Part shown: piece by piece, positions 16,776-61,182 of the stretch
Layout of the letters: every line of letters starts with the position of its first letter
Position numbering within the stretch: the first letter of the stretch is position 1
Assembly (NCBI GenBank): GCA_965649765.1
Contig: OZ287759.1
Span: 8,184,001-8,248,000 of the forward strand
From: Bispira polyomma
Taxonomy: Eukaryota
Reading direction: 5' to 3'
Length of the DNA: 64,000 bases
The notes under the pieces: model-generated
Databases searched by the model: none
What the model was told of the DNA's origin: nothing
The model's input: only the letters and a program-made list of their open reading frames with translations
Program-made: the position numbers and the translations under genes

Positions 16776-17200
16776 AAAATAGACATGAATTTTTTTAAAC
16801 GGGAAACCAAATATTTTATCTCATAATTAAGGCTCACTTTATGTGTCACCAGGATTATTACACAGAAACTATTGAACCTCAATTGGTTGAAAGCTTAGGA
16901 TCAGGAGCAAGGAATATATTTATTGAAGTTTGGAACAACGCCAGAACAAAAAGGCGCAAATCTGGGATTTTTTTGACAATGTAGCACTTTGGCGGAGGAA
17001 TGAATGTCTGTCTAGTTACAAATGAGCTTTAATGGTAAAACAATTATTCCATATTAAGACTTTAACTTTATATATTACCCTACAAGTTATAAAAAGGGTC
17101 AATAATAGTTTGTAGTGAAATACGAATATATACACACTATGCATTCTGTAAATGTTTGAGTCAAACAAAAAATCCATCAAAAACAAACAGGCGAATCGGA

Positions 17201-17692
17201 GACGAAACCCTTACGGCATGAAACCCCTAGCTGGATAAAACGTTTACCAGATGAAATCCCATCTAGATATAACCCCTACTGGATAAAACATCTACCAGAT
17301 GAAACCCCTTGTGGATGAAACCCCTACTGGATAAAACATCTACCAGATGAAACCCCTTGTGGATGAAACCCCTACTGGATAAAACATCTACCAGATAAAC
17401 CCTCTACTGGATGAAACCTCTGCCAGATAAAACTCCTACTGGATGAAACCCCTACCAGATATAACCCTTACCATATTATTCCCTACTGCTGCCAGATAAA
17501 AGTCCTACTTAATGAAATCCCTACCAGATAAAATCCTTACTGGATGAAACGCCTACTGAATGAAACCTTTACCAGATAAAATCCCTACTAGATAAAATTC
17601 CCATCAGATAAAACTCCTACTGGATGAAACCTCTACCAGATGAAACTCCTAATGGATGATATTCCTGCAGGAAAAAACGCTGCCAGACGAAA
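17201..17692. repeat. 16-bp minisatellite (~30 units) with a local 48-bp higher-order repeat
   Basis: Units GATGAAACCCCTACTG / GATAAAACATCTACCA / GATGAAACCCCTTGTG; the triplet is repeated exactly within 17282-17393. Confidence 0.9.
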
Positions 17693-47709: not shown

Positions 47710-48432
47710 ATATAGTTAGGTGGTTTCTAAAACTCGGAGCTCCGTACGGAGCTTGGGAGGTAGCTTTAAAATCGCCTAAATCTTGGGAGGTACTTTAAAA
47801 TTACCTAAATCCTGGGAGGTAGCTTGAAAATCGCCCAAATCTTGGGAGATAATTTAAAATTTATAAGGAATTAATTTCATAATTAATAATTAATTTCACA
47901 ATTAATTTTTTAATTAACTTTTATAAGGAATTAATTTTGTATAAATGTATAATTATATGCGTTCCACTAAATAACCATTGTATTGGGTGTATTGTTATAT
48001 TTATTCTTCATCCCATTTGTGGATTATAATATATAGTCTAGGATTTAATTTTGTATTTATATATTCTTATATGTAGTATTATATTTACTCTTCATCCAAT
48101 ATGCCTGAATGAAGAATAAAATACGACAATAAATTAGAGAGTTTATTATATGGTACCTTATTTTATTTAATATAGATGATTTTCAAGCTAACTCCTAAGA
48201 TAGAGCCAATTTTAGAGCAACCTCCCAAGATTTAGGCGATTTTAGAGTTAACACCCAAGATTTAGGCGATTTTCAAGCTACCTCCGTAGATTCAGGCGAT
48301 TTTAGAGCCACCTCCCAAGATTTAGATGATTTTGGGCGATTTTTTTAACCCTGTATAAAGTGCATTAGGCAATTTTAGGCGATTTCTCCGTCACGGAGGC
48401 GATTGCCTCCGAGTTTTAATATTAACCATATA
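47710..48432. mobile_element. Foldback-type DNA element with inverted arrays of a 30-bp sub-terminal repeat
   Basis: TAAAACTCGGAG (47728-47739) / CTCCGAGTTTTA (48407-48418). Left-arm repeats CTTGGGAGGTAGCTTTAAAATCGCCTAAAT; right arm is the reverse complement; AT-rich centre. Confidence 0.8.
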
Positions 48433-49312: not shown

Positions 49313-49471
49313 ATGGCGATGGAAAATGGACAAATGTCGTCTCCACCACCTCACAGCAGTGAAAGTGGCAAATTAACACACTTGCAGAGGGTAGCACAAA
49401 AGAAACAACAAGTAAAAAGTTTACCCCGGACGAAAAAACTGGAGAAGTTGGCTGTGTATTCGTCTTGTAAG
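49313..49471 (+). CDS. KAT2A: KAT2 (GCN5/PCAF) histone acetyltransferase, coding exon 1
   Basis: MAMENGQ...QKKQQVKSLPRTKKLEKLAVYSSCK matches the PCAF KKLEKLGVYSACK motif; AAAATGGCG start context; AAG|GTATGA donor, phase 0. Confidence 0.9.
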
Positions 49472-52245: not shown

Positions 52246-52366
52246 ACAGACTCTTGTAAATGCAATGGCTGGAAGAGTCCTAACTCACTTCCTACAACAC
52301 CAACAGATACATCTCATCCACAAGCCAGTCTGACTGATCCCTGCCGGAGTTGCAATCACACTCTTA
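52246..52366 (+). CDS. KAT2A: KAT2 exon 2
   Basis: TDSCKCNGWKSPN...DPCRSCNHTL (PCAF_N zinc-binding motifs); TAG acceptor, GTAAGT donor, phases 0 to 1. Confidence 0.93.
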
Positions 52367-54379: not shown

Positions 54380-54525
54380 ATAACCACGTGTCCCATCTGG
54401 AGCAGACGAGTGATGAGGAGTTGAACCGTCTACTGGGTATTGTGGTTGATGTGGAGAGTATGTTTATCTGTGTCAGACAAGAGGAGGACGGAGACACCAA
54501 ACAGGTCTACTTCTACCTCTTCAAG
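54380..54525 (+). CDS. KAT2A: KAT2 exon 3
   Basis: HVSHLEQTSDEELNRLLGIVVDVESMFICVRQEEDGDTKQVYFYLFK; CAG acceptor, AAG|GTCAGT donor, phases 1 to 0. Confidence 0.95.
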
Positions 54526-54584
54526 GTCAGTAGTTCGAACCACTTCAAGGTCAATAGTTTAAACCTCTTCAAGGTCAGTAGTTT
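54516..54584 (+). repeat. 24-bp tandem triplication spanning the exon 3 donor
   Basis: CTTCAAG|GTCARTAGTT occurs three times, with GT at 54526, 54550 and 54574. Confidence 0.9.
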
Positions 54585-54600
54585 GCATGTTGTACGAGTG

Positions 54601-55140
54601 CACAGGTGGCGCTCGCTTTAGCCTACCCTTAGCCTCAGCCACCCAGTAAAATTAAAACAAAGTCACTGTAAATTTCAAAGTGGCCAGGGCCAAGATGAGA
54701 CATCATTATGTACCGCAATATCGTGAAATCATGTAGAGACAGTATAAGTTTAGGTATGGTGATTACAGTCTTGAAATCGTGATATTGTGGGGACTTTGAA
54801 TTTACTTCTTGTTTTAGGCACTTGGATGCAACCTACATGTACCAAATTTAAGGCATAAATCATAAATTTTAGAGCAATGTATAAATGAAATAGGAGAAAC
54901 ATGACCAAGTAGAGCATAAAAATGTCGGAATTTCTTAAAATATAACAACAATGTTGACCAATAATCTTGCATTATAAATAAATGAAGCCAATAAAAATTT
55001 TGGAAAAGATTTTATGTACATAATTTTAATCCTGACATTATCGTGGTATCATCATGAAATTCTGGTGATATTGTGATATCATTCTTCACTTGTGATACCT
55101 CGGTAGGGCCAAGGGTAGGCCGAAGTCAGCGCCACCCATG
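54601..55140. mobile_element. Non-autonomous DNA transposon (hAT-like ends)
   Basis: Imperfect ~35 bp TIRs CACAGGTGGCGCTCGCTTTAGCCTACCCTT / AAGGGTAGGCCGAAGTCAGCGCCACCCATG. Confidence 0.65.
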
Positions 55141-56126
55141 TACAATGTACAATAAATATGCAGCTTGAGGAGTACACTATAAAAAAATCAGTAATAATGG
55201 TCCTAAGATCTAGCCGGTTGTATACATACACTTGTTGCTAGTAATGTTGGGTCTAGTTTGACCAGGTCGATCAATCACAAATTTTCCGACCGATCATCGA
55301 CTCAGAATCAGTTTTAAATTGCAATGATTAGTTAAGAGATTGTTTGTGAAAGAGAGGGCTTTGCGACTCGATCATGTATATTTTATTCCCCGTTGGCCGA
55401 ATTTCAGTATGTGCCCCAAAAGCACTTTGGTGCTAAGAAAAAGCATAATTAATTAGCTTGACAAGAGTGCAATTTTATGTGATTCATACACTTCAATTTG
55501 AAGTTATGTGGTGGAAAACATAAGAAGATAGTTTAAATTTTTTTTTTCTAGTGCATCGGTCAGTCTGTGTGGGCGATATTTTATACAAATGACATACTCA
55601 CATATTTAACCTTATTACTTTGTACTAAAGTATGTCTTTTATTAAACCTTCTATTACATTAAAAACCAAATCTTGCTGTCACAACTTGTTTAGATAACAA
55701 AAATTCTTGTGTAGTTGTGTATTGCAGTGTGTTCTCAAAGAAGTAGTGTTGGGACTCAGTAAATTTTTACTATGTCAGTTAATTGCAAAATTTCTGACCG
55801 ATCATCGACTCGGAATCAATTTTAAACAAACAGAATTTGTTTGTTTACACAACACCATACTTTAGTAGTTCCAAATATGGCAATAGATTGTAAACAATAT
55901 ATCTTTTGCTTTAAATTTCAGCCAATATTAAAGGAATTTGTAAATGGATTACCTATTTTCTTTGCCTGGTTGCTTTCATGTAATTTTACTAGTTATATTT
56001 AAATAACCGATTCCTTTAATTATCTAACGAATAGATGTCTGGCGTGTTACACTACCAGTGTTCGTCTTGTCACAACTCTACAAGGAACCATTTTAAGAAT
56101 TCATTGTTGTCATTTTTATTTTTCAG

Positions 56127-56216
56127 TTACTGAGGAAATGTATATTGAACATGAGCAAACCATCGGTGGAAGGTCCTCTGGGTAATCCGCCATTTGAAAA
56201 ACCAAGCATTGCAAAG
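56127..56216 (+). CDS. KAT2A: KAT2 exon 4
   Basis: LLRKCILNMSKPSVEGPLGNPPFEKPSIAK; TTTCAG acceptor, AAG|GTAATC donor, phase 0/0. Confidence 0.95.
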
Positions 56217-56341
56217 GTAATCCATTTCAATACAGTCAAAGTAGAACTCTGATAAGAGGAATTACATGTTAAGTAGAAGTTATTTTAAGGTTTCATTGCT
56301 ATACAAAAACAACTATACACTGGATATATTCTACTTTACAG

Positions 56342-56523
56342 GGTGTCACCAACTTTGTTTTATACAAGTTTGGCCACTTAACTCAGAAGGAATGGCAGAC
56401 AATGTATGACTTGGCGAAGATGTTCTTACACTGTCTGAACCACTGGAAGCTAGAAACTCCAACCACTAGGAAGAACCACGCACAGACTGATGACGTGTCC
56501 GTCTACAAAGTGAACTACACCAG
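56342..56523 (+). CDS. KAT2A: KAT2 exon 5
   Basis: GVTNFVLYKFGHLTQKEWQTMYDLAKMFLHCLNHWKLETP...YKVNYTR; CAG|GTGAGT donor, phases 0 to 2. Confidence 0.96.
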
Positions 56524-56554
56524 GTGAGTACAGTTTCCTAGTGGAGGACTTTCA

Positions 56555-56941
56555 CAACTTAAGTTGAGGAATAACTTCCATAACTCAGTTGAGAAATAAC
56601 TTCCATAACTTTTATAATTTAAGTTGAGGAATAACTTCCATAACTTAGTTGAGGAATAACTTCCATAACTTGGTTGAGGAATAACTTCTATAACGTGGTT
56701 GAGGAATAACTTCCATAACTTAGGTGAGGAATAACTTCCATAACTTGGTTGAGGAATAACTTCTATAACTTAAGCTGTGGAAAAATTTCTATAACTTAAG
56801 TTGCAGAATAACTTCTGTAACTTAAGTTGAGGAATAACTTCCTTAACTTAGTTGAGGAATAACTTCCATAACTCAGTTGAGGAATAACTTCCATAACTTG
56901 GTTAGGGAATAAATTCCATAACTTGGTTAAGGAATAACTTC
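56555..56941. repeat. 25-26 bp minisatellite (~15 units) at the start of KAT2 intron 5
   Basis: Unit GTTGAGGAATAACTTCCATAACTT(A/G). Confidence 0.92.
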
Positions 56942-57344
56942 AGCTCTCTTGCTAAAATTACTAAACAACAGAAATAGCTTGGCTCTCTGTTGTAAACTTA
57001 TAAAGAGGCTTGCTACTGCTGGGATTCGATCCGTGGACCTTGCAGATCTTGAGATTAATAGTACAGTACACTAACAGTTGAGCTAATGTGCTGGTATAAC
57101 AGATGTACAAAAACCTACTCAACAAGAAATGACATCTCGAAAACTTTAAAAGCCTAGTGCACACAGAACTTCTGGCATTCTCTCTTCTCTGATTTGCCCA
57201 GTACTCCACCATTCCCAGATTCAGAATTACAGTACTTGCTAAAGCATAAAGTTATCTGTAGCCCAGTAAGTTAATTAAACATTTAAAAATCTATCATATC
57301 ATGTAATTTGACTGACTTTATGGCATGATCTCCCATATGACACA

Positions 57345-57600
57345 GGGGCCGCGGTGGCCTAGTGGTTGGCAAGCATTGTGCCACACAATCACTGGTCTCT
57401 CACCTCTGGGCGGCTTGAGTTCGACTCCCATTGATGCCTATGTGGGAAAGGTGGTAGTTCCTTACTGTAGGCTGCTGGTTTCAGTGCAGAACCTTGATCA
57501 ACTGTATGCAGTGTTTCCTCCAGCATTTCCAACTACCCGTCCCAATATAACCTAAACAGGTACTGGAGTGGACGTTAGATATCCCAATTCAATTCAATTT
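57345..57600 (+). mobile_element. Full-length SINE family A flanked by an 82-bp direct repeat
   Basis: Matches 20496-20752; (CAATT)n tail; flanks 57264-57345 and 57601-57682 align without gaps. Confidence 0.9.
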
Positions 57601-57708
57601 CAGTAAGTTAATCAGACATTTAAGAATCTATCATATCATATAATTTGACTGACTTTATGCCACAATTCCTCATATGACACAGTTTTCTCTTCTTTTGTTT
57701 TAATGTAG

Positions 57709-57900
57709 GTGGCTCTGTTATTGTCACGTGCCGGCAAATTGTGACAGTTTGCCTAAGTACGAGACAACAGTCATCTTTGGGCGGACACTTCTTAAGTCCG
57801 TGTTTCACACGATGAGGAAACAGTTATTGGACAAGTTTAGGGCTGAGAAGGACAAGATGCCGCCGGACAAGCAAACATTGGTGCTGACTGATTTCCCCAG
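57709..57900 (+). CDS. KAT2A: KAT2 exon 6
   Basis: WLCYCHVPANCDSLPKYETTVIFGRTLLKSVFHTMRKQLLDKFRAEKDKMPPDKQTLVLTDFP; phase 2/2. Confidence 0.96.
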
Positions 57901-57908
57901 GTAAAATA

Positions 57909-58107
57909 CAGTGTTAAACCTCTATTATCCAAACTTATATCACCTGAAAATTTTCGAATTAATGTAATGATTTCAACTCTTCCTACACATTTAAGTTTTC
58001 TGTACTGATTCATACAAAAATCCCATCTTCAATTTTGTAAAAACCATCTCTTGTCTGAACAGAATCTTTTTCTTCCTAACATGTTCAGATAATAGAGGGT
58101 TCCACTG
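57909..58107. mobile_element. Tigger/pogo-derived MITE
   Basis: CAGTGTTAAACCTCTATTATCC / GATAATAGAGGGTTCCACTG ends, similar to the TIRs of 62237-63591; preceded by TA; begins 8 nt after the exon 6 donor. Confidence 0.65.
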
Positions 58108-58658
58108 TGCAGCTAAACTACAGTTTACTTAAACTTGTGTTATTTAGTGATTGACATTTTAAAAACTCTGACTGATTCTCATGTATCATCACATTAGTGA
58201 ACAACCAATAAATCTGGTGACAACAAGAACTCTCTAGAATTAGTGAGGACAGCCTCACAAAAATTAGAGCTAAAATCAGCAGCTCTTCCTATTGCAGGCG
58301 AACCCCTTAAGCTAGAACTCTGTTAAGTTGAGCAAGGAAAGTCTTTTTGTTGTAAGTTTATTCTTTTTAATGCTTAAAATAATGCTAGTAGATAAATTTA
58401 TCCTAGAGAAACTCCTAACAAACACTAAAATGTGAGTTTAAAGAGTCTGGAATATGAAATAATAATAAAGAGTTTAAAAATTGTCTCCAAGTTAAATGGC
58501 TTGATGTCAACTGTTGATTTTTTCCTGTAATCTATGGCAAATCTGCTTTAGTTGCTGATAATTGAGAAGAAACTTGTATTGGAGGAATTTGTAGAGAAAT
58601 TTAATAATAATTATTAAAGACATGTTAGTCCAACTCTAAAATTTGATATTTTGGTCAG

Positions 58659-58774
58659 GTTTCTTGAGATGCTTGAAGAAGATATTTATAATGACGACTC
58701 TCCAATTTGGGATCCAAATTTCCAGCATCCACCGACATCATTACACATACCAAACTCCAGTGGTAGTGGCCCTG
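58659..58774 (+). CDS. KAT2A: KAT2 exon 7 (end of PCAF_N domain)
   Basis: FLEMLEEDIYNDDSPIWDPNF matches PCAF FLSMLEEEVYSQNSPIWD; CTG|GTAAGT donor, phases 2 to 1. Confidence 0.93.
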
Positions 58775-59345
58775 GTAAGTTTTAATTCCCCACTAGTGCC
58801 GTAGGTGAGTTTTAATCCTCCATCAGTGCCCTAGGTAAGTTTAAACCCTGCACCAGTGCTCCAGGTAAGTTTTAATTCCCCACTAGTGCCCTAGGTAAGT
58901 TTTAATCCCCCATTAGTGTCCCAGGTAAGTTTTAAACCCTGCACCAGTGCCCTAGGTGAGTTTTAATCCCCCATCAGTGCCCCAGGTAAGTTTAAACCCT
59001 GCACCAGTGCCCTAGGTGAGTTTCAATCCCCCATCAGTGCCCTAGGTAAGTTTAAACCCTGCAATAGTGCCCTAGGTAAGTTTTAACCCTGCACTAGTGC
59101 CCCAGGTAAGTTTTAACCCTGTACCAGTGTTCTAGGTGAGTTTTAATTCCCATCAGTGCCCCAGGAAAGTGTAAACCCTGCACCAGTACCCTAGGTAAAT
59201 TTTAAGCCTGCACCATTACCCTAAGTAAGTTTTAACCCCTAGGTAAGTTTTAACCCTGCACCAGTACCCTAGGTAAGTTTTAACCCTGCATCAGTGCCCC
59301 AGGTAAGTTTTAACCCTGCACCACTGCCCCAGTTAAGTTGTAAAC
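58765..59345 (+). repeat. 30-bp minisatellite (20 units) built from the exon 7 donor junction
   Basis: Consensus GTRAGTTTTAACCCTGCACCAGTGCCCYAG; two subtypes partly alternate, giving a 60-bp higher-order period. Confidence 0.95.
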
Positions 59346-59599
59346 CATATGTATTGCAATATATTGGATTACGATACTTTTACAAAATCTTGTATGCTCG
59401 CACCCTTTATTTCTAGAATACTAAGAATTGAGTGATATTGAAAGATTTTACCTAAAATAATATGTATCTAAAATTCGCCACCAAGACAATGGGATGCATG
59501 TATGGAAGATATAAATGTGCCCCTGGGGGGCAGTGGGGGGGGAGGGGGGTGTCACTAAAATTTTCCACTGAATGACTGTACTTCTTTACTGGTATTACT

Positions 59600-59805
59600 G
59601 ATCCCTATGTAGAATAGGAAATCTAAAATTTGCCACTGTATCTGCAATTCGCCCCCTGTTTTAGAATAGTGGGAAATATTTGGTGAAATTGAGATTTTTG
59701 TGACTATTTTGCCCTTGCTTACCTACATTCCAGTTATTTTTCGCCCGTTTTTATTGAGTTGCTTAACATTTAAGGGTGGCACATTTCAGATTCAGCTGAA
59801 TTTCC
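59600..59805. mobile_element. MITE-like repeat; second copy ~61700-61910
   Basis: Shared GGAAATCTAAAATTTGCCAC...AATTCGC and GGGTGGC...ATTT blocks with inverted ends. Confidence 0.55.
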
Positions 59806-59822
59806 CTCATTGCTTGTTTCAG

Positions 59823-59942
59823 TAAGCAGTGCCGACGAGTCCACCCCGACTAAAGAAATCCTGACGAACGGCCACACAAGTATGGCGTCCACTCCCGAGA
59901 GACCAGAAAGGGGCAGACGGAGAGTGGTAGATCCAGACAGGG
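59823..59942 (+). CDS. KAT2A: KAT2 exon 8 (low-complexity linker)
   Basis: VSSADESTPTKEILTNGHTSMASTPERPERGRRRVVDPDR; TTTCAG acceptor; 120 nt, phase 1/1, fits between exons 7 and 9. No recognisable homology, as expected for this linker. Confidence 0.78.
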
Positions 59943-60096
59943 GTATGGCTAGTGGGTTATTTATAGATTACCACAGACAGAGGTACGGATAGTGGGTTAT
60001 TTATAGATTACCACAGACAGGGGTATGGATAGTGGGTTATTTATAGATTACCACAGACAGGGGTTCGGATAGTGTGTTATTTATAGATTACCACAC
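59934..60096 (+). repeat. 40-bp tandem repeat (4 units) spanning the exon 8 donor
   Basis: CAGACAGRG|GTWYGGMTAGTGGGTTATTTATAGATTACCA, with GT at 59943, 59983, 60023 and 60063. Confidence 0.92.
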
Positions 60097-61039: not shown

Positions 61040-61182
61040 GTGAAAAGAGAGTAATGGAAGACAACAGCAGCCCAGCTCCAGAAGACATGAAGAAGAGGAA
61101 AATAGAGGGAGACGTTACCATGGCCACTGTTTGTGATGTCATAGAGACCATTACTGAACCAGAGAAGATGTTGGGCCCGGAA
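61040..61182 (+). CDS. KAT2A: KAT2 exon 9
   Basis: GEKRVMEDN...KKRKIEGDVTMATVCDVIETITEPEKMLGPE matches PCAF GEKRK...GDIPMELINEVMSTITDPAAMLGPE; phases 1 to 0. Confidence 0.92.

Follow-up and report, generated by a model that had tools for sequence, protein, structure and literature searches.

The window that we analysed is a 64,000-nucleotide stretch of the genome of Bispira polyomma (GenBank assembly GCA_965649765.1, contig OZ287759.1, positions 8,184,001 to 8,248,000 of the forward strand). It carries the first nine exons of a KAT2 (GCN5/PCAF) gene, in which three introns start with a tandem array whose repeat unit lies across the exon–intron boundary. The gene was identified by a match to the PCAF_N domain, to which five of its exons correspond, and by a homologue search, where full-length homologues with PCAF_N, acetyltransferase and bromodomain align in 15 pieces along residues 33–813.

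The exons, all on the plus strand, are exon 1 (coding part, 49313–49471, with the ATG, an AAG|GT donor and a PCAF_N match), exon 2 (52246–52366; reading frame and homologue alignment), exon 3 (54380–54525; frame, PCAF_N and homologue alignment), exons 4 (56127–56216) and 5 (56342–56523), both supported by the frame and PCAF_N, exon 6 (57709–57900; frame and homologues), exon 7 (58659–58774; frame and homologue alignment), exon 8 (59823–59942) and exon 9 (61040–61182; homologue alignment). Joined together, they yield a stop-free frame of 423 codons. With the neighbouring genome stretches added, the complete gene comprises 17 exons (exons 10–17 lie outside the window), 16 GT-AG introns and a frame of 786 codons, which is intact when the first donor of each array is used. 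In a tree computed with a quick method from the protein cut at residue 672, KAT2 groups with Paralvinella and Helobdella (Shimodaira–Hasegawa-like approximate likelihood ratio test (SH-aLRT), 96; long branches), in keeping with an annelid host. Judging from the vertebrate gene structure, we take the KAT2 intron positions to be old.

Arrays at the exon edges of KAT2

In introns 3, 7 and 8, the tandem unit spans the exon–intron boundary in such a way that the authentic copy sits at the edge and the extra copies are intronic. Donor mirage 1 (54515–54584, plus strand; 2.9 copies of 24 bp in Tandem Repeats Finder (TRF)) combines 11 exonic with 13 intronic bases per unit; its authentic GT is at 54526, followed by decoys at 54550 and 54574. 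Donor mirage 2 (58765–59343, plus strand; TRF, 58769–59343) has a 30-bp unit of 10 exonic and 20 intronic bases that recurs in 20 donor registers (58775–59333), where the authentic CTG|GTAAGT at 58775 precedes five perfect CAG|GTAAGT decoys (58865, 58925, 58986, 59106 and 59303). Donor mirage 3 (59934–60095, plus strand; 4.1 copies of 40 bp in TRF, with nine exonic and 31 intronic bases) has its putative authentic GT at 59943 and decoys at 59983, 60023 and 60063. Judged from their sequence, the three arrays are mirage minisatellites, with which they agree in every feature tested. The GT is kept in two of two decoys in intron 3, in 14 of the 15 traced in intron 7 and in three of three in intron 8.

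A fourth array, with a 25-bp unit (56548–56941, plus strand; 13.3 copies in TRF at 56605–56941), begins in intron 5 at 24 nt past the donor of exon 5, and its unit contains no splice site; it is not a mirage but an array of the near-edge kind. Over the 16 introns of the complete gene, arrays span three donors and no acceptor, and one further array lies near a donor; none of the seven introns beyond the window carries an array. The preliminary description of this stretch had the 24-, 30- and 40-bp arrays at exons 3, 7 and 8 carry the exon end with the GT and run into the intron, and TRF, the reading frame and the homologues agree with it. Its 20 copies of the 30-bp unit correspond to the 20 donor registers, and the repeats are mutually unrelated, as it had stated: local alignment scores of the four units range between 11 and 20 in the six pairwise comparisons. 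It had further placed the start of the fourth array some 30 nt past the exon 5 donor and had four of the nine visible introns begin with an array; these arrays are all there, the fourth starting at 24 nt, and the gene-wide figure is that of three spanned donors in 16.

Copies within the KAT2 arrays differ from one another (77–93% matches in TRF). The array at exon 3 is crossed by short-read contigs of all three runs with 0 differences, and contigs match the 30-bp array, equally with 0 differences, at 58079–58849 (two runs) and 59034–59648 (three runs); the three runs represent two samples of one study, perhaps the assembly's own source. Among the contigs listed, none bridges 58850–59033, the 25-bp array or the 40-bp array. 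The 25- and 30-bp arrays have their own locus as the sole match in the genome, in a search that may skip common words, and the arrays of introns 7 and 8 have no match elsewhere in the genome stretches compared. We considered whether the 25- and 30-bp units derive from a dispersed element and rejected this, no copies having been found beyond their own locus. Short dispersed elements occur in intron 4 (56239–56303, occupying half of this 125-nt intron) and in intron 5 (56962–57086), with 18 and 10 matches, respectively, in the genome stretches compared.

At exon 3, the homologue alignments run through the first donor copy, and 11 of the 12 homologues are free of insertions there. The twelfth, the Strigamia KAT2 model (P0111), has an insertion of 11 residues, starting with V, exactly at the exon 3 junction, which looks like read-through past the equivalent donor in the gene model. 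The donor of exon 8, at 59943, is one that we infer, from the homologue alignment and a GC content of 60%, because the linker region encoded there is poorly conserved. An in-frame CAA|GTATGG donor at 59880 (plus strand), 63 nt inside exon 8, scores 6.1 as compared to 5.7 for the donor at 59943, and its use would remove 21 linker residues; we rejected it as the true end of exon 8, since the homologues fit an exon running to 59942 better.

Conceptual translation predicts that the decoys of intron 3, if used, would add eight or 16 codons, in frame and stop-free, that all 17 intron 7 decoys tried would lead to a stop at codon 339, and that all three intron 8 decoys would lead to premature stops at codons 390–392. 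In a matrix derived from the dynein donors of this genome, the authentic site of intron 7 reaches 10.6 bits and its five perfect-consensus decoys reach 13.9. In the 30-bp units between 58805 and 59106, a pyrimidine-rich stretch and YAG stand immediately 5′ of GTRAGT. Scored as acceptors, the AG|GT junctions of these units reach 3.5–7.7 bits (6.8 for the true acceptor), and from their sequence, they look like the zero-length-exon sites of stepwise splicing; a second AG, 8 nt upstream in the unit, has a poor acceptor score.

Frequency of arrays at exon starts and exon ends

The frequency of junction-spanning arrays was estimated in 50-kb segments of the same genome, each placed around one of 20 dynein heavy-chain loci that were not chosen for arrays. 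Introns were called by alignment to 86 long homologues and GT-AG scoring. The expected number derives from the density of seed units inside introns, only the seed unit of each interior array being counted, because raw coverage counts every copy, yet copies other than the seed unit cannot lie across a junction. In a first set of 12 genes with 353 introns, 28 donors and 31 acceptors are spanned against 5.9 expected; a second set of eight further genes with 140 introns gave 12 donors and 13 acceptors against 2.3. Pooled over the 493 introns, arrays span 40 donors (8.1%) and 44 acceptors (8.9%) where 8.2 are expected, an approximately five-fold excess (p = 5e-16 for donors and 5e-19 for acceptors, binomial values that are too small because genes differ in array load). 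About one in 12 exon edges is spanned in the sampled genes, exon starts as often as exon ends (donors versus acceptors, p = 0.74).

After masking of dispersed repeats, the excess amounts to 5.6-fold at donors and 6.2-fold at acceptors, and only four of the 84 edge arrays were mostly masked as dispersed. Measured against deep intron interiors only, it is 11.7- and 12.9-fold. In 271 short introns, 26 donors and 33 acceptors are spanned against 5.5 expected, and the enrichment is present in each of three identity classes (5.5-, 9.8- and 5.1-fold, from the most homogeneous arrays, with at least 92% identity, to the most diverged). Interior arrays that start within 25 nt of a donor reach 14.6 per 10 kb versus about 3.1 in deep intron sequence, and acceptors behave likewise, such near-edge, non-crossing arrays being four to five times denser than deep ones. 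Of the 39 near-edge arrays, 12 are similar to the edge of their own exon and 27 show no such similarity, and therefore the zone of enrichment extends slightly past the splice site.

The preliminary description had suspected recurrent, independent amplification at splice donors; the dynein sample bears out the recurrence, at both exon edges. By contrast, its link to donors is not upheld by 40 donors versus 44 acceptors, nor is the reading that KAT2 is special: three of 16 donors fits the dynein rate (P = 0.135), and three donors against no acceptors has p = 0.25. The donor-specific pattern in this one gene is a chance draw from the genome-wide background.

The load of mirages differs strongly between dynein genes, with 14 of 80 splice sites spanned at L071–L075 and none of 72 and none of 60 at L081–L085 and L116–L120, respectively, and it tracks intron GC. 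Over 12 genes, array load correlates with intron GC (rho 0.71, p = 0.01; one of six tests, and partly circular). The methylation check proposed in advance gave no correlation with the observed/expected ratio of CpG, a methylation proxy that has little range in these 12 genes (rho -0.21, p = 0.52). Authentic splice sites with and without an array do not differ in strength (p = 0.77 and 0.73). One donor mirage, with about 158 copies of a 41-bp unit, almost fills a dynein intron of 6,773 nt (L126–L130; G000:C1:24404001–24454000, minus strand).

A genome-wide motif search, which asks for three copies at a period of 20–50 bp and counts overlapping hits rather than arrays, returned 962 matches for triple AGGTAAGT versus 228 for its reversed control (4.2-fold), 2174 versus 334 for triple AGGTGAGT (6.5-fold) and 120 versus 54 for the triple acceptor motif TTTTCAGG (2.2-fold). 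Such searches favour donors, because exact AGGTAAGT marks more sites (13 of 493 donors; exact TTTTCAGG is present at four of 493 acceptors) and acceptor units mostly exceed the 50-bp limit. The first 100 listed AGGTAAGT matches represent 22 distinct arrays with different units, all of which we examined. An exon-like stretch ends at the first copy in 17 of these 22, versus 14% of 116 background motifs (p = 6e-9); at called dynein donors, the proportion is 96% of 492. Pfam matches beside the 22 arrays number seven above the cut-off and one weak, in a scan of 24 of the 29 candidate frames from 19 of the loci, the other three having no open frame of 20 codons. Outside genes, the motif is frequent as well (30 per Mb on the antisense strand, compared to 13 that coincide with donors called in that Mb), so that it is the exon edge and not the motif that marks these arrays. 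A 35-bp array of at least 2.3 kb, from G000:C1:31201351 on the minus strand, carries the AGGTGAGT motif in most copies.

Elsewhere in the window, where a single large minisatellite had been described outside KAT2, TRF detects four arrays (score of at least 100, period of at least 15) at 17200, 40761, 47752 and 48178; only the one at 17200 is long (17200–17680, 28 copies of 16 bp, with a higher period of 48 bp). The two 30-bp arrays at 47752–47860 and 48178–48333 are located about 1 kb upstream of KAT2 around an AT-rich core, and their consensus units look mutually reverse-complementary; they are possibly the ends of a foldback element. On the minus strand, a stop-to-stop frame of 427 codons with a basic helix-loop-helix (bHLH) domain (28767–30047) presumably corresponds to a NeuroD-like gene.

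Unit geometry and the origin of the arrays

The units of the edge arrays measure 21–140 bp, acceptor units being longer than donor units (p = 0.007). The geometry test covers 38 of the 40 donor arrays, two having been dropped as no in-register copy was traced. The intronic part is shorter than 18 nt in four of 44 acceptor arrays versus 14 of 38 donor arrays (p = 0.003), and the four acceptor arrays compare to 9.2 expected (P = 0.03). The scarcity of short acceptor units suggests a splicing filter, in that an acceptor copy would have to include a branch point and a pyrimidine tract. The period is divisible by three in nine of 38 donor and 14 of 44 acceptor arrays, i.e., there is no frame preference. 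Amongst decoys, the GT columns are variable about as often as the others (11 of 30 versus 100 of 326, p = 0.54), and so are the AG columns (four of 26 versus 54 of 278, p = 0.80). The nearest decoy has its GT intact in 37 of 41 arrays and its AG in 39 of 44. The measure of junction microhomology was broken by mismatches in all seven two-copy arrays.

We propose, with a probability of roughly 0.6, that the arrays are short local duplications that form or persist preferentially at exon edges, grow in the ordinary way and are tolerated. The process would start with a short tandem duplication across an exon edge that leaves the exon whole: when a duplication crosses the junction, the exon stays intact and all extra copies fall in the intron. 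Duplications wholly within exons would be purged, and therefore only edge-crossing ones would remain. Input of duplications would be raised in a zone around exons that reaches some tens of intron bases, rather than by the donor motif itself, and later growth of the array would be ordinary minisatellite turnover. The mirage arrays are likely harmless; they would be tolerated because the spliceosome would go on selecting the copy nearest to the exon. Acceptor copies would have to be long enough to hold a branch point and a pyrimidine tract themselves, and any transcripts that leak to the decoys of introns 7 and 8 would be degraded by nonsense-mediated decay (NMD). As the source of the five-fold excess, we favour greater duplication input around exons over longer retention there. 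More tentatively, and rather short of an even chance, the exon edges of this animal could be germline hot zones for tandem duplications of 20–140 bp, through exon chromatin or co-transcriptional exon definition, with both splice sites seeded at least five times faster than intron interiors and about one in six introns carrying copies of its own junctions.

Duplications might instead arise evenly and those beside exons last longer, because the deletions or transposon turnover that could remove them usually harm the exon too and are eliminated. In favour of retention of this kind, the excess is alike at the two exon edges and tapers off over roughly 100 nt, the units of 12 of the 39 near-edge arrays are similar to the edge of their own exon and have the look of mirages that are old and have drifted, and dispersed repeats make up about one-third of the collapsed intron sequence (of its 431,145 bases, 293,519 stay unmasked). 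However, the most homogeneous arrays are as enriched as the most diverged, divergence is no greater in edge arrays than in interior arrays (median 88.5 versus 85, p = 0.17), repeat masking raises the fold, and edge arrays can also contract to one copy. We consider retention on its own unlikely, if worth keeping in mind; the enrichment in near-identical arrays leans towards input but does not settle the choice. Seeding specific to donors, by U1 binding, polymerase pausing or R-loops just past the 5′ splice site, would account for the bias of KAT2 and for the higher fold of the triple donor motifs over control, yet donors and acceptors are spanned alike in the dynein sample, the KAT2 bias is compatible with chance and the motif searches are themselves biased towards donors; such seeding seems highly improbable to us.

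The idea that decoys are used and selected, be it for NMD dose tuning, for added residues (intron 3) or for stepwise AG|GT splicing (intron 7), was raised in part by the preliminary description. It can draw on the intact GT or AG of most nearest decoys, on the in-frame, stop-free decoys of intron 3, on the intron 7 decoys that outscore the authentic site and resemble acceptors, and on fewer GT and AG mismatches in a test against the authentic copy. Nevertheless, with decoy dinucleotides that vary like other columns, periods without frame preference and 11 of 12 aligned homologues free of insertions at the exon 3 junction, we regard it as quite improbable. Least credible of all is that the arrays are introns being born by AG|GT duplication, as in the Rogers model, or assembly artefacts. 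Most donors do have AG before the GT (A in 80% and G in 85% at positions -2 and -1), so that donor arrays make AG|GT junctions, and a mirage-based route of intron gain is proposed in the part of PMC3087553 available to us. Against intron gain, also mentioned at the outset, stands the finding that none of the 493 introns is spanned end to end and that the KAT2 arrays stop 479–1542 nt before the acceptor. An artefact is made unlikely by the differences amongst copies and by contigs that are identical to two of the arrays over the stretches they cover.

Several points weigh against the input reading that we prefer. The data do not tell higher input at exon edges from longer retention there, and because arrays homogenise, identity is a poor guide to their age. 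The enrichment also hinges on the choice of null: raw coverage puts arrays on 13.9% of interior intron bases, above the figures for splice sites (28 and 31 of 353). Genes differ in load, the extremes being 0 of 72 and 14 of 80 splice sites (p = 0.0007), and the sample consists of one gene family plus KAT2, with introns from homology and GT-AG scoring rather than RNA. Compared with the authentic copy, mismatches are fewer at the decoy GT (16 of 250 versus 304 of 2737 in the flanks, p = 0.019) and at the decoy AG (seven of 190 versus 234 of 2048, p = 0.0003). It is alone among the results in speaking for decoys that are maintained, though we consider the test biased, since the authentic dinucleotide is not free to vary and the copies are not independent. 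Lastly, perfect-consensus decoys in the human F7 gene drew some splicing, according to the accessible part of PMC1557585, and KAT2 intron 7 has five such decoys.

Relation to known systems

In the portions of PMC3087553 and PMC3902484 available to us, tandem duplications of 5′ and 3′ exon–intron boundaries with normal splicing are described for lancelet genes (Adh3, the globins BflGb6 and BflGb9, troponin C and PGBD5), and the mechanism in these single-gene cases is called unclear. As in amphioxus, the unit described here spans the boundary, the extra copies are intronic, many of them keep the GT or AG, and both boundaries are affected; the amphioxus unit sizes given there (10–72 bp in Adh3 and 150–160 bp in the globins) overlap with the 21–140 bp found here. 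In contrast to those cases, the host is not a lancelet, the KAT2 protein grouping with two annelids, and the Bispira data comprise a rate of 8–9% per edge, an enrichment over a null, symmetry of donors and acceptors and a geometric filter at acceptors. For amphioxus, these same portions also report splicing outcome and length polymorphism; the Bispira data are genomic sequence.

According to the accessible part of PMC1557585, experiments showed that the upstream-most donor is used in the 37-bp variable number tandem repeat (VNTR) of human F7 intron 7, and only decoys with a perfect consensus compete. As in introns 3, 7 and 8 of KAT2, the first F7 unit holds the junction and near-identical donor pseudo-sites follow; unlike in F7 as described there, the authentic site of KAT2 intron 7 is naturally followed by five perfect-consensus decoys that are stronger than it. 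The Rogers model, in which an intron is gained via tandem duplication of an AG|GT site (PMC3087553 and PMC3265369, in the sections available), shares with KAT2 the tandem duplication of a segment that includes an AG|GT junction. As set out in those sections, however, it copies exonic sequence and creates the two ends of the intron, while in KAT2, an existing site is duplicated and the far intron end is retained. The KAT2 arrays are not Rogers-type gain: in none of them does the pair of intron ends come from the duplicated unit.

A literature search, conducted mostly without subscription papers, found no genome-scale rate of mirages, no comparison of donors with acceptors and no acceptor filter. 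The repeat type is already known; the rate and the acceptor filter are apparently new, and their basis is a single gene family with a single null model. Junction arrays can mislead gene prediction in such genomes. What becomes testable now is whether the places at which short duplications arise are influenced by exon structure, and by what rule the spliceosome picks among identical or stronger decoy sites, for which KAT2 intron 7 offers a ready test case of the upstream-most donor rule. If exon edges truly are hot zones for duplication, a single genome would, by extrapolation, hold tens of thousands of natural decoy-site experiments, with a unit geometry filtered by branch-point rules.

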